Assembly: GCF_013315695.1 (NCBI RefSeq)
Contig: NZ_CP054353.1
Direction: 5' to 3' (one strand)
Origin: Escherichia coli
GTDB lineage: Bacteria; Pseudomonadota; Gammaproteobacteria; Enterobacterales; Enterobacteriaceae
Length of the DNA stretch: 64,000 bases
The notes under the pieces are model-generated. The model made no database searches, was not told the DNA's origin, and was given only the letters and a program-made list of their open reading frames with translations. Shown here piece by piece: positions 10,430-23,630 of the stretch. The translations under genes and the position numbers were made by a program. Position 1 is the stretch's first letter. Every line of letters starts with the position of its first letter.

Positions 10430-11900
10430 CAGAAACGCGACTTAAGAATCTACCCTATGAATGGATATGCACTCAACCGAATCGATCTTGGTTTCAATCT
10501 TTTTTATCGGGATCAGGCTTCTTTTTAGGTAACTTCGGGGGCTTAACTTGCTGATGACTTTGCGTTCGGCGCGTAAGCCAGGGATGGTCAGCTTTAGGTT
10601 TAACATAGTATTTTGAGCGTAAATCAATACGGGCATTATCCACTCGTTCATGGACACTCTTTTCATCATCCAGTGGTATAGGCTCCGGGCCATCAACATA
10701 CTTTTCCCAGCCCAGCGCTTTCCCGTCATACAGAACGTTAATTTCACCGTCAAAGTTCTCGCATACAGTAACAACCGAATGCCTAAGTCGATATCCCCGG
10801 CCCTCACTGCGTACCTGAAACGCACTGCTTTTGTACTGGAAAGTGAGATTTTTAGACAGAACGCGCTTCGCCTGTAGGCTGAAGATATAACCCAGTTCCT
10901 CTTCAGAATGGTGCACATCAAGATGAGCATTATCAGTAGTACGAGGCGACGTAGCGAACCGGTTGTTATAGGCTTCAATAAAGGTCGGCAACCATGCATT
11001 TGCTGTTTCAATATCACTGATATTCTGAAGCCGCATTTCTTTGACCAGCCTGTCCTGTAGTGTCTGATTGGCGCGCTCTACCCGCCCTTTTGCCTGCGGG
11101 CTGTTGGCATGGATTGGCTCGATGCCCAGTGTCTTTATCGCACGAGTGAACTGGGTCAGCTCACCTTCCCGCTCTGGGTTATTTACCCTGAATATACTGT
11201 GTCTATCAGAGTAGAGAGCGAGCGGTACGCCATGATCATTAAGGTAACCCCGGAGGGTTTCCATGTAAGCCCGGGTTGTTTCAGCAGGCACAAAACGCAA
11301 CGCCATCAACGCACTGGTGGCATCATCAATGAAAACGATCAGTGTACATCTGGGGCCTCGATTTTCAAACCAGTCATGAGGTGAGCCATCAATCTGGATC
11401 AGTTCACCGTAAGATGGTCGTCGCATGCGGCGTTGATATATACGGGCAATTTTACGACGGCGTTCACGCCATAACCCCTCTTCTATCATCCACTTTCTGA
11501 GAGTTTCAACGGATAAAGATAAACCGTGTATCTCGCGCAATTTTTCGCACGCAAACGTAGGTCCAAAATCAGCGTAACGGCCTTTGAGGAGTGAAATTAC
11601 TGTTGCTCTGAATTCAGTAGAAAAGGAATTATTAGGACGCTTTCCACGTCGGTGGGAAACCAGAGCAGAAGGCCCTTCATTTCTATACCGTTGCACCAGA
11701 CGTTTAACCTGCCGAATAGAAATGCCAATGCGTGCCGCAGCTTGTTCCTGAATAATCTGAAGTCGGTGGAGTTCCTTATGACTCATCGTAACAGTCTCTT
11801 TGATCATGAAAAATCCCCCAGAGAATTGTCTGGGGACATTTTAGAATGGTTCAAAGGGGACATTACAGCTTGGTGTTAACAATAGCCTGCTTCTCCGTGC
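10430..11900 (-). mobile_element. Probable insertion sequence carrying a single DDE (rve-type) transposase; boundaries approximate
   Basis: Single 437-aa transposase ORF flanked by non-coding DNA with GGGGACA-type repeats and a candidate imperfect terminal repeat (AGGCTATT... at ~10330 and ~11885); ends not resolved. Confidence 0.4.
10494..11807 (-). CDS. DDE transposase, integrase-core (rve) type with N-terminal HTH (IS481/ISNCY-like)
   Basis: 437-aa ORF with N-terminal HTH (AARIGISIRQVKRLVQRY) and core ...IDGSPHDWF...FIDDATS...YSDRHSIF...SPQAKGRVERANQTLQDRL... Confidence 0.6.
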   Translation of the reverse strand: MIKETVTMSHKELHRLQIIQEQAAARIGISIRQVKRLVQRYRNEGPSALVSHRRGKRPNNSFSTEFRATVISLLKGRYADFGPTFACEKLREIHGLSLSVETLRKWMIEEGLWRERRRKIARIYQRRMRRPSYGELIQIDGSPHDWFENRGPRCTLIVFIDDATSALMALRFVPAETTRAYMETLRGYLNDHGVPLALYSDRHSIFRVNNPEREGELTQFTRAIKTLGIEPIHANSPQAKGRVERANQTLQDRLVKEMRLQNISDIETANAWLPTFIEAYNNRFATSPRTTDNAHLDVHHSEEELGYIFSLQAKRVLSKNLTFQYKSSAFQVRSEGRGYRLRHSVVTVCENFDGEINVLYDGKALGWEKYVDGPEPIPLDDEKSVHERVDNARIDLRSKYYVKPKADHPWLTRRTQSHQQVKPPKLPKKKPDPDKKD

Positions 11901-12141
11901 CTTTCGGCACGTAAGAGGCTAACCTACATGTGTCTAGCATGAAATTGGCCTCAGATTAATGTTAAGCGTCTTGCAGGACGCGTAATGTTAACTGGGGCTT
12001 TTCTCTATCTGCCGTTGGTGTCCATGCCCGAGGCAGATAGCCTCAAGCACCCGCAGTCATTCTACTTAACTAAGATTTCCCCGCAAACCGTTTTTGTCCA
12101 GCACAGTAAATATCCAACTAAACCAATGGAGTTCGCTGTAT

Positions 12142-12321
12142 TTACCGCCAGTATTCAATGCACATGACCGCCATGAACACCCCTAAAAAAAGGGCATTTA
12201 TATATCCAAATATTAATATCAAAACATCAACTTTTTCCATATACCTTGCTGTGAAGATGATGGGCATACATGATGCGAACAACCAGAACGCAACAAACAA
12301 AAACTGCAATGCGTTTTTCAT
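12142..12321 (-). CDS. Small hydrophobic two-TM protein (59 aa), hypothetical
   Basis: ORF 12142..12360; internal start MKNALQFLFVAFWLFASCMPIIFTARYMEKVDVLILIFGYINALFLGVFMAVMCIEYWR preceded by a strong AGGAGG Shine-Dalgarno. Confidence 0.4.
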   Translation of the reverse strand: MKNALQFLFVAFWLFASCMPIIFTARYMEKVDVLILIFGYINALFLGVFMAVMCIEYWR

Positions 12322-13473
12322 TATTCCTCCTACAATCAATGTGCAATTACATTTAAACACACCTCAATTTGGCCGGACATATAAATATCTAAACCAGAAA
12401 AAATCACTTACATAGCGTTACAAACTCTTTAGTCTAAAGGTTCATCGTAAAACATTCCCCATACTTATCAGTCCGTTCCGCGCCAGGTAGCTCATTGCCT
12501 TATCTGGCAACCTGTAATCAGGTTTCCGCTTTTTCAGTTGGCTGGTCGTTTAACCGACATAGTTAATCCATTAATCTAGTTGCCGGATGTTGGTGGATTT
12601 TCGCGTTTTAGTTGTTCATAAAAGTGCACAGCTTTAACCAGTTCTTCTGATGTAACTGGGACTGGTGAGGCAGTGAATAAGGCCTGAATTTGATAGTTCG
12701 GCCTGTCGTTACAATCCTCTTTTTTCGGTACATATTTCCAGTCACCAGACCACTACTTCCCCTGAAAGTCCGTAACGCCTTTTTTTACGTAGCGATATCG
12801 CCATGCCACTGGTTTTGCTTGCCCCGCCGTTTCATGCCCTTCCTGATAATTAATCTCGCTCATTCATCGCCCCACTCATCACAATATGCTTCGACCGGAG
12901 TTTTTCCCGCTTCATAGTCATCACGCTAGGATTCGACATCAGCAGCACTTCCACCGCGTAACTCACCATAGTCCATTAATAGTTCATCCCGCTCTTCAAA
13001 ACTGATGTTATATTTAGCTGAACAAAAATCAGCCACTTTGTTCTTCCTCATCGTCTTTTATTTCGTGGTATGAGTAATTGCAGTAGTTAAAGAAAATTTC
13101 TTATGCTCCGTCATGAATTTCCTCAGGTGTTGCGTCATCGTCCACTTCGAATACATCCTCAAAATCTCCACCAGCTATTCCCGTTTCAATAATAATTTTG
13201 AACTTTCGCATTTCACTACCGCCCTTTCGGGCGGCCTCCTGATGTTCTGAGGGTGCAGAAATCCATCCGGTTAAGGATTAAATTTTATTTACAGAACTGA
13301 ATTTAATTATTCAGATATACGTATCTGTAGCCTTACGAATCTACTCACTGGATGCCTCTTTCATAAAAATAATCCAGTGGGTTTTATCGTTTTTTCCCTG
13401 TTCGTTGACAGATAACAGGTTTTCTGTCTGTCAGTGCCAGAATCTGGCTTACCGGTATTTGCGTTTCATTCCA

Positions 13474-13830
13474 TTAAAAAATCAGAACGCCGTGCGGCCT
13501 CAACACCCGAAAGGCTTCTTTAAATCTCTGTCGCGAATCATCACGCCAGGCATCTTTATTCAGCCGTCCATATTTCTTTCCCATCCAGGCGTTATCACCA
13601 ACACTCTCAAGATGCGGAGGGTCTAATACAACCATCGAAAAAGATGCGTCTGCAAATGATAATGCACGAAAATCTGCGATAATGTCAGGGCTGATAATCA
13701 AGCGTCTCCCATTGCGTAATGTGTATCCTTCTTTTCTGATATCGCTGAATATCGCCCGTTCGTCAGACTTATCGAACCAGAACATGCGGCTGCCACAGCA
13801 CATATCAAGAATGGTTGCCGGTGCACTCAC
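13474..13830 (-). CDS. DNA methyltransferase-like protein, probably C-terminally truncated
   Basis: 118-aa ORF with SAM-binding-like motif ILDMCCGS and catalytic-like motif VVLDPPH; ends abruptly after PHGVLIF. Confidence 0.4.
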   Translation of the reverse strand: MSAPATILDMCCGSRMFWFDKSDERAIFSDIRKEGYTLRNGRRLIISPDIIADFRALSFADASFSMVVLDPPHLESVGDNAWMGKKYGRLNKDAWRDDSRQRFKEAFRVLRPHGVLIF

Positions 13831-14249
13831 TGCGCCACGTCCTGAAAATTACCCTGATAGAAAGCCAGTATGCGCTGCATAACTTCGCTCTTCCGGCACT
13901 CGCGACAGATTATGTTTAGGCGACTGTCGTAGCGACGTATTTCTCCGTCAGGTGATGACCAGATAAGGTCCGGATCAACCACAGCAGGTTTCTTCACCTT
14001 TGCCCTCGAGAGTTTTTTGCGGGCGTTTTGCCAGTCCTTACGCGCCTGTTCAGAGGGGAATAACCCGTAGCCGGAGTTGTATACATCGCCACTGGCTACC
14101 AGCTCTCTGGCAAGAACGCTCATCAGATATCTAGTCGCACCTGTTTTAGCTTCCAGTTGCCGTAACGTCTCACGGCCGCTCTGGCGCACGAGTTCCACCA
14201 CCTGCCATTTAATTTTTTCCCGCTCTTCTTGTGTAAAAACTTTTGCCAC
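13827..14249 (-). CDS. Hypothetical phage early-region protein (140 aa)
   Basis: ORF between the replication-initiator-like gene and the methyltransferase-like gene, overlapping start/stop; no family recognised. Confidence 0.35.
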   Translation of the reverse strand: MAKVFTQEEREKIKWQVVELVRQSGRETLRQLEAKTGATRYLMSVLARELVASGDVYNSGYGLFPSEQARKDWQNARKKLSRAKVKKPAVVDPDLIWSSPDGEIRRYDSRLNIICRECRKSEVMQRILAFYQGNFQDVAQ

Positions 14250-14289
14250 AAGTCCCCCTTAAAATTACCTCATGACCTGAAATCAACAC

Positions 14290-15255
14290 TTATCCTCTGA
14301 AACCAGGCGGAATTTCTGTATCCGGTTCAGAAATATGATTAACACAACGCTGTACAGGTGAACGTCCCAGGCGGATGACCAGTTCGTCCCATTTTTCGCG
14401 GAGCTTTGACGGGCTCATGATGTTTTTTACCCAGAATGGATCTCGCTGAACCCGACCAAACATTTCGCAAATTTGTCTGTGGCTTCTGCCATCCAGCATC
14501 CGCATTGTGCGCACGTCATTGGCCCAGGCAGTCCAGTTAGGCTCTTTTGGTCGCATGATCTCGCCATCATCACTGGCTGCCTGTTCGTAGAGACCCACGA
14601 TCCGCCCCCAGATCCACTGCGCACACGCCAAATCCTCCCTGCTACCCCACTGGCGTTTTTTCGCACTAAACACAACCGCGTCGGAGTTCCGGGTTAAAAA
14701 ATCCTGTTCAGTCGTCTGCGGGTCCGGTTGCGAAGCTTCCGGACGAAAAGTGTTTTTATTCTCTGTAGTAATCTCTGTTGTATTCTCTGTAAGATCATCA
14801 GGCCATTTTGACCCGATGACATTGGGTCGTTTTGAACCAATGGAGCGTTTCATTTTGACCTCTTCCATCGTGTCATTTTGACCTGATGGAGCGGCGCATT
14901 TTGAACCGATGGATTCGCTCAATTTGCCACCATCTAAAAGCTCGCTCCCATAGTTGATCGTGTAGAAATTGGTCATATCGCGCTTTGATTTATTGAGCTT
15001 TTCACAACGCAAAAGCCCCAGCGTTTTCAGACTTGCAAACGCGCGCTTTAACGTTGACTCTGACCAGAATGGGAACTGTTCCAGCCATTGTTCCGTTGTG
15101 TTATAAATCCAGCGAACACCATCACATTCCATGCCGGAGTTGGTATCTCTCAACCAGTAGTGCAGTTGTTGCAAAACAATGGCTTCGTTTAAGCCAATTT
15201 TCATTGCCAGCTGCGTGTTTATAACCAGTGGGCGTTCAGCAAAAAGAAGGCTCAT
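14290..15255 (-). CDS. Phage replication initiator-like protein (lambda O-like), iterons inside the coding sequence
   Basis: ORF 14290..15309 (likely start MSLLFAERPL at 15255); the SIGSK...SIGSK...VIGSK peptide repeats are encoded by a DNA iteron array. Confidence 0.5.
   Translation of the reverse strand: MSLLFAERPLVINTQLAMKIGLNEAIVLQQLHYWLRDTNSGMECDGVRWIYNTTEQWLEQFPFWSESTLKRAFASLKTLGLLRCEKLNKSKRDMTNFYTINYGSELLDGGKLSESIGSKCAAPSGQNDTMEEVKMKRSIGSKRPNVIGSKWPDDLTENTTEITTENKNTFRPEASQPDPQTTEQDFLTRNSDAVVFSAKKRQWGSREDLACAQWIWGRIVGLYEQAASDDGEIMRPKEPNWTAWANDVRTMRMLDGRSHRQICEMFGRVQRDPFWVKNIMSPSKLREKWDELVIRLGRSPVQRCVNHISEPDTEIPPGFRG
14803..14935. repeat. Iteron array (~6 copies of CATTTTGA(A/C)C(C/T)GATGG at ~23-bp spacing); candidate prophage replication origin
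   Basis: Repeats read directly at ~14803, 14827, 14850, 14873, 14896 and 14919. Confidence 0.6.
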
Positions 15256-15757
15256 AATTCCATCCAGCTTTTTGTTGGTATTGCTGTCGATACGCAAGTT
15301 TGAAAGCAATTGCTTTTTCTATAAGTTCGTCAGTTTCACGATCCACTACGGCAGGATCAGCAAAAAGCAGTCCGGACTCCACCACATCGCCATATTCTTT
15401 GTTTAACCCGGCGATCATGCACGTGATGCTTTTTCCGTCAGTAATTTCACGATACAACCTGAAATCATTAATCCGGATAGCCTCCATAATTGCAGGCACT
15501 AGCGCCGTGAACTTTTCACGCTTATCCCTAGTGTCGATAGCCTTCCAGCGTTCAAATATCTTCACTCGATTAACGCCAAGCGCTCGCTGATCAATCGCGC
15601 CACCTTCATATGTGACACGCTGAACATCGATGTTCGGGCGCTCTTTCAAAGCCCAGAATGCTTCAGTGATTAATATCGTCGCCTGCTCCTGTGTCATTCC
15701 TGGTCGACATATCCAGGCATCCAGAGCCTCACGAGCCTGTTCAGGAGTGATTTTCAT
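15236..15757 (-). CDS. Hypothetical phage early protein downstream of the Cro-like gene (173 aa)
   Basis: ORF overlapping the dicC stop; no family recognised. Confidence 0.4.
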   Translation of the reverse strand: MKITPEQAREALDAWICRPGMTQEQATILITEAFWALKERPNIDVQRVTYEGGAIDQRALGVNRVKIFERWKAIDTRDKREKFTALVPAIMEAIRINDFRLYREITDGKSITCMIAGLNKEYGDVVESGLLFADPAVVDRETDELIEKAIAFKLAYRQQYQQKAGWNYEPSFC

Positions 15758-17502: not shown

Positions 17503-17557
17503 TTTCTGGTGACGTTTGGCGGTATCAGTTTTACTCCGTGACTGCTCTGCCGCCCTT
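17503..17557 (+). ncRNA. dicF: DicF small regulatory RNA (anti-ftsZ)
   Basis: Sequence TTTCTGGTGACGTTTGGCGGTATCAGTTTTACTCCGTGACTGCTCTGCCGCCC followed by TTTTT matches DicF as I remember it; directly upstream of dicB. Confidence 0.8.
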
Positions 17558-17729
17558 TTTAAAGTGAATTTTGTGATGTGGTGAATGCGGCTGAGCGCAC
17601 GCGGAACAGTTAAAACCAAAAACAGTGTTATGGGTGGATTCTCTGTATCCGGCGTTAATTGTTAACTGGTTAACGTCACCTGGAGGCACCAGGCACTGCA
17701 TCACAAAATTCATTGTTGAGGACGCGATA

Positions 17730-17918
17730 ATGAAAACGTTATTACCAAACGTTAATACGTCTGAAGGTTGTTTTGAAATTGGTGTCACTATCAGTAACCC
17801 AGTATTTACTGAAGATGCCATTAACAAGAGAAAACAAGAACGGGAGCTATTAAATAAAATATGCATTGTTTCAATGCTGGCTCGTTTACGTCTGATGCCA
17901 AAAGGATGTGCACAATGA
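17730..17918 (+). CDS. dicB: DicB cell-division inhibitor (62 aa)
   Basis: Internal start MKTLLPNVNTSEGCFEIGVTISNPVFTEDAINKRKQERELLNKICIVSMLARLRLMPKGCAQ in ORF 17625..17918. Confidence 0.85.
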   Translation: MKTLLPNVNTSEGCFEIGVTISNPVFTEDAINKRKQERELLNKICIVSMLARLRLMPKGCAQ

Positions 17919-18106
17919 ATTCAGCATTTGTGCTTGTTCTGACAGTTTTTCTTGTTTCCGGAGAGCCAGTTGATATTGCAGTCAGTGTTCACAGGACAAT
18001 GCAGGAGTGTATGACTGCAGCAACCGAACAGAAAATTCCCGGTAACTGTTACCCGGTCGATAAAGTTATTCACCAGGATAATATCGAAATCCCGGCAGGT
18101 CTTTAA
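17915..18106 (+). CDS. ydfD: YdfD (63 aa)
   Basis: Internal start MNSAFVLVLTVFLVSGEPVDIAVSVHRTMQECMTAA... in ORF 17861..18106; start overlaps the dicB stop. Confidence 0.75.
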   Translation: MNSAFVLVLTVFLVSGEPVDIAVSVHRTMQECMTAATEQKIPGNCYPVDKVIHQDNIEIPAGL

Positions 18107-18162
18107 AACAGTTCCGTAATAAATATCCGGTTTCATTCTTATATGCCAACAATGGCAGGGAT

Positions 18163-19326
18163 TTGTTCATCCTTAAATCTGTCATGAGGTTAAAACAAAT
18201 GAGTAAAGTCTTTATTTGCGCCGCTATTCCTGACGAACTGGCAACAAGGGAAGAAGGCGCTGTGGCTGTAGCCACAGCCATTGAAGCTGGCGACGAACGC
18301 CGTGCTCGAGCAAAATTTCACTGGCAATTCCTGGAACATTATCCGGCTGCTCAGGACTGCGCTTATAAATTTATTGTCTGCGAGGATAAACCTGGCATAC
18401 CCCGCCCTGCCCTCGATTCATGGGATGCTGAATATATGCAGGAAAACCGCTGGGATGAGGAGTCTGCTTCTTTTGTCCCGGTTGAGACTGAATCCGATCC
18501 GATGAACGTCACTTTTGACAAGCTGGCCCCTGAAGTACAGAACGCTGTCATGGTTAAGTTCGACACATGTGAAAACATCACCGTTGATATGGTTATTAGC
18601 GCACAGGAATTGTTGCAGGAAGACATGGCAACATTCGACGGACATATCGTTGAAGCGTTGATGAAAATGCCAGAAGTTAACGCCATGTATCCGGAGCTTA
18701 AGCTGCATGCCATCGGGTGGGTTAAGCATAAATGTAAGCCTGGTGCCAAATGGCCCGAAATTCAGGCAGAGATGCGCATCTGGAAAAAACGTCGCGAAGG
18801 TGAACGTAAGGAAACCGGAAAATACACGTCTGTTATTGATCTCGCCCGCGCCAGAACCAATCAACAGCACAGTGAAAATTCAACAGGAAAAATCAGCCCG
18901 GTCATTGCTGCCATTCATCGCGAATACAAGCAGACATGGAAAACACTGGATGACGAACTGGCCTACGCTCTCTGGCCTGGTGATGTGGATGCCGGAAACA
19001 TTGACGGCAGCATCCATCGCTGGGCAAAAAATGAAGTTATCGACAACGACCGCGAAGACTGGAAGCGTATCTCGGCATCAATGCGCAAACAGCCTGATGC
19101 CCTTCGCTACGACCGCCAAACTATTTTTGGCCTTGTCCGTGAGCGTCCGATCGACATTCACAAAGATCCCGTAGCACTGAACAAATATATCTGCGAATAC
19201 CTGACGACAAAGGGCGTGTTTGAGAATGAAGAAACAGACCTGGGCACTGTTGATGTTCTCCAGTCATCAGAAACACAAACTGATGCAGTGGAAACTGAGT
19301 ATTTCCAGACATCTGTTATCACTTAA
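18163..19326 (+). pseudogene. ydfE: ydfE-like prophage gene whose 3-prime end runs into IS2 (C-terminus replaced by IS-derived codons)
   Basis: ORF continues 27 bp past the IS2 boundary at 19300 before stopping; true start uncertain (candidates at 18199 or 18403). Confidence 0.55.
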
Positions 19327-20202
19327 CCCATTACAAGCCCGCTGCCGCAGATATTCCCGTGGCGAGCGATAACCCAGCGCACTATGCGGATGCCATTCGT
19401 TATAATGCTCGAACGCCTCTGCAAGGTTCTTTGCTGCCGTTAACCCGTCTGGTTTGGGCATGATACTGATGTAGTCACGCTTTATCGTTTTCACGAAGCT
19501 CTCTGCTATTCCGTTACTCTCCGGACTCCGCACCGCCGTGTTCTTCGGTTCAAGTCCCAACATCCGGGCGAACTGGCGTGTTTCATTAGCCCGGTAGCAT
19601 GAACCATTATCCGTCAGCCACTCCACTGGAGACGACGGAAGATCGTTGCCGAAGCGGCGTTCCACCGCTCCCAGCATGACGTCCTGTACTGTTTCACTGT
19701 TGAAGCCGCCGGTAGTGACCGCCCAGTGCAGTGCCTCACGATCACTGCAGTCCAGCGCGAACGTGACACGCAGTCTCTCTCCGTTATCACAGCAGAACTC
19801 GAACCCGTCAGAGCACCATCGCTGATTGCTTTCTTTCACGGCCACTCTGCCTGTATGTGCCCGTTTCGATGGCGGTACAGCAGGTTTTCGCTCAAGCAAC
19901 AGCGCATTCTGGCGCATGATCCGGTAAACACGTTTGGCATTGATCGCAGGCATACCATCAAGTTCTGCCTGTCTGCGAAGCAGCGCCCATACCCGACGAT
20001 AACCATACGTGGGCAGCTCTCCGATAACATGGTGTATACGGAGAAGCACATCCGTATCATCAGTGTGACGACTGCGGCGGCCATCCATCCAGTCATCGGT
20101 TCGTCTGAGAATGACGTGCAACTGCGCACGCGACACCCGGAGACAACGGCTGACTAAGCTTACTCCCCATCCCCGGGCAATAAGGGCGCGTGCGCTATCC
20201 AC
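19267..20202 (-). CDS. insD: IS2 transposase OrfB (InsD) with ~10-codon C-terminal extension into flanking DNA
   Basis: 311-aa ORF; body matches InsD through ...[11 protein letters not shown], then continues [10 protein letters not shown] because the normal stop lies in the missing IS2 terminus. Confidence 0.85.
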
Positions 20203-20616
20203 TTTTTTGCCCGTCCATATTCAACGGCTTCTTTGAGGAGTTCATTTTCCATCGTTTTCTTGCCGAGCAGGCGCTGGAGTTCTTTAATCTGCTTCATGGC
20301 GGCAGCAAGTTCAGAGGCAGGAACAACCTGTTCTCCGGCGGCGACAGCAGTAAGACTTCCTTCCTGGTATTGCTTACGCCAGAGAAATAACTGGCTGGCT
20401 GCTACACCATGTTGCCGGGCAACGAGGGAGACCGTCATCCCCGGTTCAAAGCTCTGCTGAACAATTGCGATCTTTTCCTGTGTGGTACGCCGTCTGCGTT
20501 TCTCCGGTCCTAAGACATCAATCATCTGCTCTCCAATGACTAGTCTAAAAACTAGTATTAAGACTATCACTTAAATAAGTGATACTGGTTGTCTGGAGAT
20601 TCAGGGGGCCAGTCTA
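19300..20616 (-). mobile_element. IS2 copy (1317 bp), missing ~14 bp of one terminus
   Basis: insC/insD ORF pair; one end GGTTGTCTGGAGATTCAGGGGGCCAGTCTA intact at 20587-20616; the other end matches IS2 only from TATTTCCAGACATCTG inward. Confidence 0.8.
20160..20525 (-). CDS. insC: IS2 OrfA (InsC)
   Basis: ORF 20160..20570 with internal start [41 protein letters not shown]... Confidence 0.85.
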
Positions 20617-21991
20617 TGAGGTATCTGATATCCCAAAAAATGAAACCGCGCCGGAAGCTGAACCATCTGTAGAGCGTGAGGGGCCGTTCTATTTCCTCTT
20701 CGCAGATAAGGACGGAGAAAAATGCGGTCGCGCAAACAAACTTTCTGGTCTGGATAAGGCACTGGCTGCTGGCGCCACTGAAATCACAAAAGAAGAATAT
20801 TTTGCCCGAAAAAATGGCACATACACGGGCTTACCGCAAAATGTAGATACCGCTGAAGATTCAGAACAACCAGAGCCGATAAAAGTTACCGCTGACGAAG
20901 TAAACAAAATTATGCAGGCAGCCAATATCAGCCAGCCTGACGCCGATAAGTTGCTTGCTGCATCACGTGGTGAATTTGTTGAAGGGATTAGTGACCCGAA
21001 TGATCCGAAATGGGTTAAGGGGATCCAGACCCGCGATTCTGTGAACCAGAACCAGCATGAATCGGAACGGAACTACCAAAAAGCGGAACAAAACAGCCCA
21101 AATGCGTTACAAAACGAGCCAGAAACGAAACAGCCTGAACCAGTGGCGCAACAGGAAGTGGAAAAAGTCTGCACCGCCTGCGGTCAGACCGGCGGCGGCA
21201 ACTGCCCTGATTGTGGCGCGGTGATGGGCGACGCAACATACCAGGAAACATTCGATGAAGAGTATCAGGTTGAAGTTCAGGAAGATGATCCGGAGGAAAT
21301 GGAAGGCGCTGAACATCCACACAAGGAGAACACTGGCGGCAATCAGCATCACGATAGCGATAATGAAACTGGCGAGACGGCAGATCGCTCAATTAAGGTG
21401 AACGGTCATCACGAAATCACATCCACCAGCAGGACGTGTGACCATCTAATGATCGACCTTGAAACCATGGGAAAAAATCCTGATGCCCCGATCATCTCAA
21501 TAGGTGCAATATTTTTCGATCCGCAAACCGGAGATATGGGACCGGAATTTAGTAAGACTATCGATCTGGAAACTGCTGGCGGAGTCATTGATCGGGACAC
21601 CATTAAATGGTGGCTTAAGCAATCACGCGAAGCGCAATCTGCCATTATGACCGATGAAATCCCGTTAGATGATGCACTGTTACAATTGCGGGAATTTATC
21701 GACGAAAACTCCGGTGAATTTTTTGTTCAGGTTTGGGGAAATGGAGCCAACTTCGACAACACGATTTTGCGCCGTTCATACGAACGGCAGGGGATCCCCT
21801 GCCCGTGGCGTTACTACAACGATCGCGATGTACGCACAATCGTTGAGCTGGGGAAAGCCATAGACTTCGATGCCAGAACGGCTATTCCATTCGAAGGTGA
21901 GCGCCATAATGCACTTGATGACGCCCGTTACCAGGCAAAATACGTTTCAGTTATCTGGCAAAAACTGATCCCGAGTCAGGCTGATTCTTAA
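20617..21991 (+). pseudogene. Prophage exonuclease-like gene, 5-prime truncated by IS2: zinc-ribbon motif plus C-terminal DEDDh 3-prime-5-prime exonuclease domain
   Basis: Reading frame is open from the IS2 edge with no start codon in host DNA; [16 protein letters not shown] motif; DEDDh motifs [27 protein letters not shown]. Confidence 0.5.
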
Positions 21992-22063
21992 TGTTCAACT
22001 GTCGCCGGTTGTGACTGGTATTCTGCAACCGGCGCTCGTCTGATGTAAGAGATAAAGAAATCG

Positions 22064-22315
22064 ATGAGCGAAGTAATCATGATTGTCTCTCCCGGCAAAT
22101 GGGTATCCGAAGAGCAGTTAATTGCGCTGAAAGGAATAAAAAAAGGTACGTTAAAAAAGGCCCGGGAAAAATCGTTTATGGAAGGAAGGGAATATAAGCA
22201 TGTCGCTCATGACGGTATGCCATGGGATAACAGTCCATGCTTTTACAACCTGGAAGAAATTGATCGCTGGATTGAGCGCCAGGCATCAGCGAGACCAAGA
22301 CGTCATCTTACTTGA
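22064..22315 (+). CDS. Putative excisionase-like small protein
   Basis: 83-aa ORF immediately upstream of the integrase gene on the same strand; assignment positional. Confidence 0.45.
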   Translation: MSEVIMIVSPGKWVSEEQLIALKGIKKGTLKKAREKSFMEGREYKHVAHDGMPWDNSPCFYNLEEIDRWIERQASARPRRHLT

Positions 22316-22349
22316 CTAAAAACCACACTAACTAATGAGAGAAGTTGAA

Positions 22350-23630
22350 ATGAAATATCCGACAGGCGTGGAAAACCATGGAGGGAAATTACGTATCTGG
22401 TTTGTTTATAAAGACGTAAGAGTCAGGGAAAATCTGGGGGTTCCTGACACAGCAAAAAACAGGCGCGTTGCAGGTGAACTACGCTCCTCTGTTTGTTACG
22501 CAATAAAAACTGGTGTTTTCGACTATGCAAAACAGTTTCCCTCCTCACGCAATCTGGAAAAATTTGGTGAGGCCCGACAAGATTTAACCATAAAAGAACT
22601 GGCTGAAAAATTTCTGGCACTGAAAGAAACTGAAGTCGCCAAAACATCACTCAACACATACCGTGCCGTCATCAAAAATATCCTGAGCATAATCGGTGAA
22701 AAAAATCTTGCCTCATCGATTAATAAAGAAAAATTACTGGAGGTTCGTAAAGAGTTACTGACTGGATACCAGATCCCCAAAAGTAACTATATTGTTACAC
22801 AACCAGGGAGATCGGCTGTAACTGTAAATAATTACATGACAAATCTTAACGCCGTGTTCCAGTTTGGTGTTGATAACGGTTACCTGGCAGATAATCCGTT
22901 TAAGGGGATCTCGCCATTAAAGGAATCAAGAACCATTCCGGATCCTCTTTCGCGGGAAGAATTTATCCGTCTTATCGATGCGTGCAGAAATCAGCAAGCA
23001 AAAAATTTATGGTGTGTTTCTGTTTATACTGGAGTTCGCCCTGGTGAGCTGTGTGCACTTGGATGGGAGGACATAGATCTGAAAAATGGAACAATGATGA
23101 TCAGGAGAAATTTAGCAAAAGACCGTTTCACGGTACCAAAAACACAGGCGGGAACCAATCGGGTCATTCATCTTATTAAGCCAGCAATCGACGCTCTCCG
23201 GAGTCAGATGACATTAACGAGACTGAGCAAAGAGCATATCATTGATGTTCACCTCAGAGAGTATGGCAGAACAGAAAAACAAAAATGCACCTTTGTTTTT
23301 CAACCTGAAATGTCAGCGAGAGTAAAAAATTATGGTGACCATTTTACCGTTGACTCAATAAGGCAGATGTGGGACGCAGCGATAAAACGTGCCGGACTCC
23401 GCCATCGAAAATCATATCAGTCGAGACATACTTATGCCTGCTGGTCGCTGACAGCTGGTGCTAACCCGGCATTTATAGCAAACCAGATGGGCCATGCAGA
23501 TGCGCAAATGGTATTTCAGGTATACGGAAAATGGATGTCTGAAAACAATAATGCACAGGTAGCTTTGTTAAATACACAGTTAAGCGAGTTTGCCCCAACC
23601 ATGCCCCATAACGAAGCAATGAAAAATTAA
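22350..23630 (+). CDS. intQ: Phage tyrosine integrase
   Basis: ORF 22335..23630; C-terminal catalytic region with ...HSQRHTYACWSLTAGANPAFIANQMGHADAQMVFQVYGKWM... (R..H..R..Y-type integrase features). Confidence 0.8.
   Translation: MKYPTGVENHGGKLRIWFVYKDVRVRENLGVPDTAKNRRVAGELRSSVCYAIKTGVFDYAKQFPSSRNLEKFGEARQDLTIKELAEKFLALKETEVAKTSLNTYRAVIKNILSIIGEKNLASSINKEKLLEVRKELLTGYQIPKSNYIVTQPGRSAVTVNNYMTNLNAVFQFGVDNGYLADNPFKGISPLKESRTIPDPLSREEFIRLIDACRNQQAKNLWCVSVYTGVRPGELCALGWEDIDLKNGTMMIRRNLAKDRFTVPKTQAGTNRVIHLIKPAIDALRSQMTLTRLSKEHIIDVHLREYGRTEKQKCTFVFQPEMSARVKNYGDHFTVDSIRQMWDAAIKRAGLRHRKSYQSRHTYACWSLTAGANPAFIANQMGHADAQMVFQVYGKWMSENNNAQVALLNTQLSEFAPTMPHNEAMKN

Follow-up and report, generated by a model that had tools for sequence, protein, structure and literature searches.

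In the 64,000-nucleotide stretch of Escherichia coli DNA analysed here (the window), an IS2 element lies within an early gene of a Qin-type lambdoid prophage, between the dicB operon genes on one side and the excisionase and integrase genes on the other. The features of the locus are:

17504-18106, plus strand: upstream genes of the same operon, comprising the DicF small RNA (17504-17555), dicB (17730-17918), and ydfD (17915-18106)
18199-19299, plus strand: 5' part of the gene (the 'ydfE-like' ORF), codons 1-367, with the YdfE_N head and a helical central domain common to RecE
19296-19299, no strand: TGAG, remaining from the left copy of the IS2 target duplication (5 bp, TGAGG), from comparison with isolate AF3
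19300-20616, minus strand: IS2, 1317 bp, its insC/insD genes antisense to the exonuclease gene
20617-20621, no strand: right copy of the target duplication, TGAGG, from junction comparison
20618-21991, plus strand: 3' part of the gene, comprising codons 368-823 and the stop, preceded by a second copy of codon 367
22064-22315, plus strand: excisionase (PF06806, E 1.6e-31), directly 3' of the exonuclease gene with no recT or bet between
22335-23630, plus strand: full-length prophage integrase with Arm-DNA-bind_2 and Phage_integrase domains

The region 17504-18106 is collinear with the Qin prophage of K-12 at 99.3%, and DicF is matched in Rfam at 76.7 bits. Downstream, the K-12 alignment resumes at window position 22471, K-12 intQ being a truncated remnant of the integrase. 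The order of exonuclease gene and excisionase gene recurs in L001, L002, L009, and phage Tritos.

A prophage gene interrupted by IS2

The two flanking fragments are accounted for by a single intact gene of 2472 nt that encodes 823 residues. In an intact, IS-free copy (L001:3904-6375), nucleotides 1-1105 align to 18199-19302 and nucleotides 1098-2472 align to 20617-21991; identity between 18199-19299 and nucleotides 1-1101 of that copy is 96.8%, and the 3' fragment matches intact genes annotated as 'exonuclease' or '3'-5' exonuclease' at 99.9% identity over 1375 nt. Joining 18199-19299 to 20621-21991, with IS2 and the 4-bp duplicate removed, restores a 2472-nt open frame, the 823-residue product of which differs from WP_016236065.1 by nine substitutions. 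As it stands, the 5' ORF reads eight codons into IS2 and stops at 19324-19326. The 3' frame is open from 20618 to the TAA at 21989-21991, and the sole start codon assigned mechanically, GTG 20579, lies within IS2 and gives a 470-residue ORF. The fragment downstream of IS2 is thus very probably the 3' 55% of one Qin-type prophage early gene that was inactivated by IS2 at codon 367, the point at which the element would have entered, within an acidic disordered linker.

An earlier note, made from the letters of this DNA, had called the gene IS2-truncated, with no start codon in host DNA. The IS2 disruption and the position of the sole start, inside the element, bear this out, but the gene is interrupted and not truncated, as both halves are still there. 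The note had also left it undecided whether the upstream ydfE-like ORF was the N-terminal part of the same gene or of a neighbor; the two-part alignment to the intact copy and the rejoined frame identify it as the N-terminal part of the same gene. All elements described in that note are present at the coordinates given there, and its interpretation is essentially borne out.

The element itself is incomplete. Its ORFs lie at 20160-20570 and 19267-20202 on the minus strand. Its left inverted repeat (...GGGGGCCAGTCTA) is complete and ends at 20616, so that the first host base is 20617. At the opposite junction, comparison with isolate AF3 and with K-12 indicates that the right inverted repeat has lost its outer 14 bp and the left duplicate 1 bp. 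Isolate AF3 carries a complete IS2 at the same site, with TGAGG on both flanks, and relative to it the window is short of 15 bp at the left junction (G + TGGATTTGCCCCTA). Judged by the requirement for two terminal inverted repeats and a target duplication of 5 bp, the window copy therefore falls short of a full IS2, although RefSeq siblings label the element 'IS3-like element IS2 family transposase'. The stretch 19300-19991 matches K-12 IS2E at 99.9% identity; a common insertion event with IS2E was rejected, since orientation and both junctions differ.

K-12 bears the mark of that separate event. Its ydfE pseudogene corresponds to window positions 18199-18965, next to an IS2 that is oriented the other way, and a deletion extends from nucleotide 768 of the gene through to the integrase. 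By this sequence comparison, K-12 ydfE is the stump of the 823-residue exonuclease gene, and a minor value of the locus described here lies in revealing the former nature of that pseudogene.

The gene family is otherwise well represented. A copy was found in 4740 of the 5426 complete E. coli genomes, as well as in isolated phages; Escherichia phage Tritos carries a full-length, 98% identical gene (TRITO_27) in the same gene order. The PHROG 2082 profile is matched end to end. The reconstructed protein shares with WP_016236065.1 and PHROG 2082 (YdfE_N, YdfE_C, and Rv2179c-like parts) its length and the neighborhood dicF-dicB-ydfD-exo-xis-int, and differs from them in that IS2 divides the window gene at codon 367. 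RefSeq annotates the same IS2 insertion as pseudogene halves, labeled 'exonuclease, missing C-terminus' and '3'-5' exonuclease, missing N-terminus'. Standard annotation already covers the gene family and the IS2-broken allele, both of them ordinary. In sibling genomes, automatic annotation labels the two halves correctly, and the window case, another gene of a Qin-type prophage in decay that an IS has inactivated, matters little in itself. The searched literature on ydfE contained no functional study and no biochemical or genetic data on the protein, and a search for Rv2179c together with prophage returned nothing.

The exonuclease domain and its likely substrate

The C-terminal part of the protein, which the earlier note had assigned to the DnaQ-like exonucleases, is occupied by this domain:

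21443-21958, plus strand: DEDDh 3'-5' exonuclease domain, Rv2179c-like and T4 DexA-like, supported by PF16473, the DexA match, motif conservation, and the structural model

Domain searches with the translated fragment sustain this assignment. PF16473 (Rv2179c-like) is matched with an E value of 1e-67 and 227.7 bits against a cut-off of 27, over profile positions 2-177 of 177, a score well in excess of chance. The motifs IDLET (21452), NGANFD (21740), and HNALDD (21905) supply the D-x-E of Exo I, the aspartate of Exo II, and the H-x4-D of Exo III, and they align with D7, E9, D119, and the H-x4-D region of DexA. The catalytic residues, with their window positions, are D646 (21455), E648 (21461), D746 (21755), H796 (21905), and D801 (21920), each of which is at least 90% conserved in an alignment of 83 homologues. 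In an AlphaFold2 (AF2) model, fragment residues 271-450 have pLDDT values above 90 and take up an RNase H-like alpha/beta fold; in a Foldseek search of the PDB, DexA ranks first (E 1.8e-11), followed by RNase T, 3'hExo, CRN-4, and Orn/REXO2, all with probability 1.00. The DexA structures 8KEL/8KEN are also matched by sequence (E 1.5e-6), which makes DexA the best match of solved structure by both sequence and fold.

Based on these homologues, the intact protein would be a two-metal-ion (Mg2+ or Mn2+) 3'-to-5' exonuclease, and it would most likely act on DNA ends. Alternatively, its substrate could be RNA or short oligoribonucleotides, as for Rv2179c, Orn, and RNase T; examples would be host or phage RNA 3' ends or nucleotide second messengers. 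Names favor this alternative: the Pfam title of PF16473 is '3'-5' exoribonuclease Rv2179c-like', and PGAP often labels the protein '3'-5' exoribonuclease'. The namesake, Rv2179c of Mycobacterium tuberculosis, a bacterial enzyme that is free-standing, has been described as an exoribonuclease; by Pfam profile, it belongs to the same family. The fold matches that follow DexA, namely RNase T, 3'hExo, REXO2, and Orn, point the same way, but RNase T trims DNA too. In addition, the scaffold that bears this domain can bear a RecE-type DNase or a Rad52-related annealase domain in its place (see below). The nearest solved relative by sequence and fold, T4 DexA, is a DNA exonuclease (PMC12153337). Taken together, an RNA substrate appears unlikely, and action on DNA ends is the preferred reading for the intact enzyme.

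The domain is nevertheless distinct from DexA (exonuclease A) and from its known E. coli relative. It shares with DexA the DEDDh fold and catalytic residues, as well as an aspartate at the position of DexA D90, but only ~20-32% of residues are identical, W152 is replaced by tyrosine, and DexA-specific loops, one of which contains D169, are missing. DexA is a free-standing, 227-residue protein of a lytic phage, whereas the domain here forms the C-terminus of an 823-residue protein of a temperate phage. EcD, or 'HREX' (HAK9828821.1), is an E. coli DexA homologue reported to be an anti-T4 nuclease specific for 5hmC-DNA (NAR 2025, PMC12153337). An EcD-like protein of 189 residues was recovered from viral contigs by means of the forward primer given in the supplement to PMC12153337; the forward 17-mer primer itself is absent from the window. 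Both EcD and the domain described here are short-form DexA-like DEDDh domains and occur in E. coli and prophage-type contigs. In contrast to the domain here, EcD is free-standing and has alanine at the D90 position (A78 in EcD) and tryptophan at the W152 position. Of the features that mark HREX/EcD, namely retention of W152 and D169 and loss of the tetramerization residue D90, none is found in the domain, which has Tyr at the W152 position, lacks the DexA-only insertion that includes D169, and keeps Asp at the D90 position. Identity with EcD was rejected on these diagnostic residues and on a sequence identity of only 37% (E 2e-36). Membership in a known anti-phage defense system was likewise rejected: in PADLOC-DB 2.0, no system-specific protein model matched, and the one match was to the generic 'DEDDh, Cas-associated' model at E 1.6e-5.

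Expression of the separated halves

In K-12, the dicB promoter transcribes ydfD-ydfE (PMC11430063). The intact gene would be made from the corresponding dicB-ydfD early leftward transcript upon prophage derepression. In the interrupted gene, the 3' piece would have lost promoter, ribosome-binding site, and start codon and become a silent pseudogene fragment; at most a 375-residue N-terminal stump (367 residues plus 8 encoded by IS2) could be made.

An independent promoter and start codon downstream of IS2, which the earlier note had named as evidence that would overturn its reading, were sought by consensus scans. A promoter scan found no promoter-like site on the plus strand in 17800-22400, and no in-frame ATG, GTG, or TTG after IS2 has a Shine-Dalgarno match at a distance of 4-12 nt. 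The ATG at 21299 is preceded by GGAGG at a distance of only 2 nt; the ATG at 21449 is also in frame. Judging from these consensus scans, the 3' fragment is most likely silent. The other ground for refutation named in the note, lack of an exonuclease-family match, is contradicted by the strong PF16473 match.

According to a competing view, the 3' fragment continues to yield a DexA-like exonuclease that stands alone and is comparable to EcD, with a start at GTG 20579 in IS2, at ATG 21299, or at ATG 21449, and with transcription by read-through or from within IS2. Several observations make such a product conceivable. Homologues of ~180-250 residues are abundant, and some (for example P0166, P0167, and P0262) align from the equivalent of M644; the EcD-like 189-residue protein is 37% identical to the domain. 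EcD protects against T4 even at leaky expression (PMC12153337). The near-complete identity of the fragment to intact copies implies an undamaged catalytic domain, and read-through from the upstream operon across IS2 could occur. The results of the promoter and Shine-Dalgarno scans weigh against it, as does the antisense orientation of IS2 relative to the gene. So do the differences from EcD: the positions replaced or missing in the domain (W152 and D169) are residues reported to be needed for 5hmC recognition, the aspartate that EcD has lost is kept, and the PADLOC match is generic for DEDDh proteins and weak. Free-standing expression is accordingly held to be highly improbable, and independent expression was rejected as the likely state on the promoter and Shine-Dalgarno scans; a silent 3' fragment remains the favored description.

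A scaffold shared with RecE

Upstream of the exonuclease domain, the 3' part of the gene encodes three further features:

20678-20827, plus strand: small conserved alpha/beta mini-domain (residues 387-436; PFYFLF...GRANK), pLDDT 88-94 in two independent models
20944-21386, plus strand: mosaic segment common to Rac recE, comprising a linker with WVKGIQTRD, the Cys knuckle, and an acidic tail, from nucleotide and protein alignment
21170-21214, plus strand: C-x2-C-x7-C-x2-C, a putative zinc knuckle or mini zinc ribbon (CTACG...NCPDCG; C551, C554, C562, C565)

Homologues of the 5' part have precomputed Pfam assignments to PF27430 (YdfE_N) and PF27432 (YdfE_C). The AF2 model of this part has pLDDT above 90 for residues 1-205 and 245-340; for residues 1-475, modeled as the N-terminal scaffold, mean pLDDT is 83.4, and a Foldseek search of the PDB with that model gave no match at E <= 0.001. 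The mini-domain is kept in YdfE-type relatives whatever the C-terminal effector. The mosaic segment that follows is modeled mostly with low confidence or as disordered. Within it, the four cysteines form two CxxC pairs and are kept in RecE and in P0123, P0142, and P0204, whereas the entire module is missing from P0122, P0126, and P0133; the cysteines are conserved wherever the module exists, and the module is optional. Of the zinc ribbon proposed in the earlier note, the conserved Cys motif stands, but the ribbon fold is of moderate confidence only: the model shows isolated beta-bridges with pLDDT ~62-69 and no metal modeled, and zinc binding is putative. The acidic linker recognized at the same time is borne out in two stretches, with aspartate and glutamate making up 27% of residues 568-640 and 28% of residues 337-386.

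The resemblance to Rac RecE suggested in the earlier note proved substantial. BLASTP against K-12 RecE gives an E value of 4e-62, aligning residues 262-625 with RecE 278-591. Near-identity extends over residues 477-625 (RecE 456-591), residue 477 lying at 20948, and the alignment ends at RecE residue 591. At the nucleotide level, the mosaic segment is 78.6% identical to K-12 recE nucleotides 1365-1765 over 443 nt. The protein thus resembles RecE in a homologous central region, in a near-identical pre-nuclease linker with the four-Cys motif and acidic tail, and in its slot in the early leftward operon. RecE itself (exonuclease VIII, b1350) consists of a PF06630 head and a PD-(D/E)XK 5'-3' nuclease (PF12684; RecE 606-866), and its gene is followed by recT; the protein here combines a YdfE_N head with a DEDDh 3'-5' nuclease and lacks an annealase partner. 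By sequence, it is a RecE paralogue and not RecE.

A rival reading would make the gene an orthologue of RecE (exonuclease VIII), supplying 5'-3' resection in a RecET-type pair. In its favor, full-length copies are called 'exonuclease VIII' or 'exodeoxyribonuclease VIII' in phage records, the protein is similar to RecE in its central region, and the gene fills the exo/bet position, with the kil/dicB genes on one side and xis-int on the other. The reading can nevertheless be dismissed as exceedingly improbable, because the NCBIfam RecE equivalog NF007259 scores 285.2 bits, far under its cut-off of 1269, over model positions 271-602 only; a Pfam search finds no PF06630 N-terminal domain in the protein and no PF12684 (DUF3799/PD-(D/E)XK) match in either half (RecE itself, E 4e-28); the DEDDh nuclease domain has the opposite polarity; and no recT, bet, or erf gene occurs from dicA to int in the window or after the gene at five other loci (L001, L002, L008, L009, and L011). 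The 'Exonuclease VIII' labels attached to DEDDh-type copies in phage records consequently name the wrong mechanism.

Comparison of full-length relatives places this paralogue in a wider family. Natural hybrids exist in both directions: P0123 combines RecE_N with the DEDDh domain, and P0139 combines YdfE_N with PD-(D/E)XK and is followed by a RecT gene. The DEDDh domain thus occurs on either head, and DEDDh forms adjoin xis-int directly. In the P0137 type, the same scaffold carries a Rad52/22-related C-terminal domain; this name is indirect, in that free-standing homologues bear it, some with PF04098, and the domain itself gave no Pfam match and no PDB sequence match with a single sequence or a profile. 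These relationships show that one scaffold, a YdfE_N or RecE_N head plus the shared central domain, bears interchangeable DNA-end effectors: PD-(D/E)XK with a RecT neighbor, Rad52/22-related, DexA-like without an annealase, and at least one further type. The DEDDh nuclease would share its N-terminal and central scaffold with the 5'-3' nuclease of RecE, which provides a lead for studies of why full-length RecE differs in behavior from its nuclease domain.

More speculatively, the DexA-like version could have an undescribed role, for example as a prophage-encoded nuclease that attacks the DNA of superinfecting phages or in 3'-end trimming during RecA-independent recombination; we regard this as doubtful. 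As an anti-superinfection nuclease, it would be a relative of EcD/HREX with a different specificity; the IS2-split copy in the window would be inactive regardless.

One gene in two pieces

The fragment at 20617-21991 belongs to a frame that is open from 20618 to a TAA at 21989-21991, and the sole mechanical start of its ORF, a GTG at 20579, lies within IS2, in line with the earlier note's description of an IS2-disrupted frame with no start in host DNA. Genes annotated "exonuclease" or "3'-5' exonuclease" match all 1375 nt of the fragment at 99.9% identity. Of 5426 complete E. coli genomes, 4740 contain a match, and 4037 of those have at least 80% of the fragment. At intact loci, a gene of 2472 nt encoding 823 aa (WP_016236065.1) is flanked by dicB and a DUF1482/ydfD gene on one side and by an excisionase-integrase pair on the other. 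Nucleotides 1-1105 of this IS-free homologue align to window 18199-19302 and nucleotides 1098-2472 to 20617-21991, and joining 18199-19299 to 20621-21991 rebuilds a continuous open frame of 823 codons that differs from it at 9 amino acids. The "ydfE-like" ORF upstream of IS2, which had been offered as the N-terminal part of the same or a neighbouring gene, therefore belongs to this gene as its 5' part. All motifs quoted earlier are present.

Features of the split gene (residues numbered on the 823-aa protein)
19300-20616, transposase genes on the minus strand: IS2 insert, 1317 bp (ORFs and K-12 alignment)
20948: 10-residue motif, from aa 477
21170-21214: four-Cys motif (C551, C554, C562, C565)
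21452: IDLET (D646, E648)
21740: NGANFD (D746)
21905: HNALDD (H796, D801)

The earlier observation is thus confirmed and its interpretation supported. The gene family is already recognised by current databases (Pfam, PHROG, PGAP): precomputed Pfam labels on homologues are YdfE_N (PF27430) and YdfE_C (PF27432), and the PHROG 2082 profile spans the protein end to end. The very same allele is also already annotated as pseudogene halves in sibling genomes.

The exonuclease domain and its relation to DexA

Fragment residues 276-447 match Pfam PF16473 (Rv2179c-like 3'-5' exoribonuclease domain; E 1e-67), D646, E648, D746, H796 and D801 are each at least 90% conserved in an 83-sequence alignment, and AlphaFold2, run on the fragment, models the domain with pLDDT >90 throughout. 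The PDB folds closest to the modelled domain are DexA, the T4 exonuclease A (E 1.8e-11), then RNase T, 3'hExo, CRN-4 and Orn/REXO2; the only PDB sequence matches of the fragment, 8KEL and 8KEN, are also T4 DexA (identity also from PMC12153337). These data support the C-terminal DnaQ-like exonuclease domain assigned earlier from the sequence alone. Ahead of it, AlphaFold2 places a confident 50-residue alpha/beta mini-domain at aa 387-436 and, after it, a stretch that is mostly disordered (aa 446-636). As described, the linker regions are acidic (D+E 27-28% vs K+R 5-6%). As for the proposed zinc ribbon, its four cysteines are present within the disordered stretch, and the model there reaches a pLDDT of only ~62-69.

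DexA is reported to cut unmodified DNA as a tetramer and 5hmC DNA as a dimer, with switching between the two, and an E. coli homologue, EcD (HREX), to cleave only 5hmC DNA and protect against T4 (PMC12153337, 2025). Use of the published EcD forward primer retrieved from viral contigs a free-standing, 189-aa EcD-like protein that starts MIDTET and carries Ala at position 78; the 3' end of its gene equals the reverse primer, save one extra base in the printed primer. The agreement with the primers and the reported Ala78 places EcD-type genes on contigs of prophage or viral type, here IMG/VR contigs L022, L023, L026, L029, L036 and L037. This protein is 37% identical to the prophage exonuclease domain. 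In the latter, the DexA W152 position is Tyr, D169 falls within a DexA-only insertion and D90 is retained. Because the residues that the paper treats as diagnostic differ, the gene was kept out of HREX; PADLOC returned a generic DEDDh match only.

Kinship with RecE and a modular family

The segment noted earlier as RecE-like proved to be so: in BLASTP against K-12 RecE, aa 262-625 align to RecE 278-591 (E 4e-62), with very high identity over aa 477-625, and the alignment ends where the nuclease domain starts in each protein. The block in common with recE (78.6% nucleotide identity over 443 nt) has the character of a typical lambdoid mosaic module. The protein is not itself RecE, as the NCBIfam equivalog score is 285 against a cut-off of 1269, neither a PD-(D/E)XK nor a PF06630 domain is present, and recT is missing downstream. 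In phage records including OV696610.1 (Tritos), ON470619.1 and EU570103.1, copies of the DEDDh type go by the name "exonuclease VIII" or "exodeoxyribonuclease VIII". The label was transferred from the shared RecE central region and misstates nuclease type and polarity. The function of the RecE N-terminal region was unknown according to a 2023 review (PMC11611040).

When 50% representatives were searched exhaustively with HMMER and compared by BLAST one module at a time, they revealed a combinatorial family with varying heads, linker and effectors.

Modules of the family
Head: RecE_N (PF06630) or YdfE_N
Central domain: homologous across the family
Cys-knuckle linker: optional
C-terminal effector: DEDDh, PD-(D/E)XK, "P0137-type" or "P0130-type" (after representative proteins)

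The representative P0123 consists of the N-terminal 460 residues of RecE fused to a DEDDh domain, in a Rac-like context (sieB-kilR-ydaE) with an excisionase-like gene and an integrase directly 3', and P0139 joins YdfE_N to a PD-(D/E)XK domain, with a RecT-family gene following it. The effector of P0137 (L012 5001-7337) has free-standing homologues, some named Rad52/Rad22 family or carrying PF04098. In P0137 and the related representatives P0153, P0154, P0181 and P0225, this C-terminal domain takes the place of a nuclease behind a YdfE_N head; these proteins look like scaffold-annealase fusions, and they lie between a Gam-like gene, which precedes them, and a Sipho_Gp157 gene. The scaffold thus serves recombination-type DNA-end enzymes, among which it is the DEDDh form that lacks an annealase partner. 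This lends support, short of proof, to a DNA-end substrate for the intact protein.

IS2 insertion and the K-12 allele

The IS2 left inverted repeat (...CTGGAGATTCAGGGGGCCAGTCTA) ends at 20616, and the element is antisense to the exonuclease gene. At exactly the same site, isolate AF3 (NZ_OZ547117.1) has an IS2 whose ends are complete and whose target duplication is TGAGG. Compared with AF3, the IS2 of the window and of strain MSB1_4I lacks 15 bp at the right-inverted-repeat junction, namely one base of the target duplication plus TGGATTTGCCCCTA. This deletion, at the 19296-19300 junction, removes the outer 14 bp of the right inverted repeat, and because that terminus is gone the window copy is probably immobile. 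Among the 5426 complete E. coli genomes, just 3-5 show the IS2-split allele. The fragment is nearly identical to intact alleles, with 1 of 1375 nt different, which suggests that the insertion is recent. Both gene halves are annotated by PGAP as incomplete pseudogenes in the AF3 and MSB1_4I genomes.

An independent promoter and start downstream of IS2, named earlier as evidence against a truncated gene, did not turn up in the scans: there was no plus-strand promoter-like site in 17800-22400, and none of the in-frame start codons of the fragment lies 4-12 nt after a Shine-Dalgarno match. ATG 21299 comes closest, with GGAGG just 2 nt upstream. The fragment is most likely a silent 3' pseudogene piece, and a 375-aa N-terminal stump ending in the IS2-encoded YFQTSVIT is possible.

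Upstream of the split gene, and in the same operon as it, dicB and ydfD are intact, as is the antisense sRNA that precedes them.

17504-17555: DicF (Rfam RF00039, 76.7 bits)

The K-12 genes dicB-ydfD-ydfE are transcribed from a promoter that lies ahead of dicB (PMC11430063). The window and K-12 Qin are collinear, with 98-99.6% identity. K-12 ydfE corresponds to 18199-18965 only; after it comes a partial IS2 (IS2E), opposite in orientation to the window IS2, with a complete right end that abuts the integrase at window-equivalent 22471 (K-12 locus L004 7844-8549). The K-12 ydfE-insD7-intQ arrangement comes from a separate, independent IS2-associated event that struck the same gene and deleted all of its sequence from gene nucleotide 768 onward, together with xis and the 5' portion of int. 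The window still has xis and int at full length.

E. coli MSB1_4I has the same deleted IS2 allele, with the exonuclease halves at two loci (L006 and L007; NZ_LR898874.1, ~2.58 Mb and ~2.67 Mb), ~89 kb apart on opposite strands, each adjoining half of a fimbrial usher gene, which indicates an inversion between two IS2 copies. Window 10600-15550 matches this strain at 100% identity. About 4.8 kb of the window (10678-15478) is absent from K-12 Qin; identical stretches in other genomes are annotated with an ISNCY family transposase, a DUF977 protein, a class I SAM-dependent methyltransferase, a YdaT-family toxin and hypothetical proteins.
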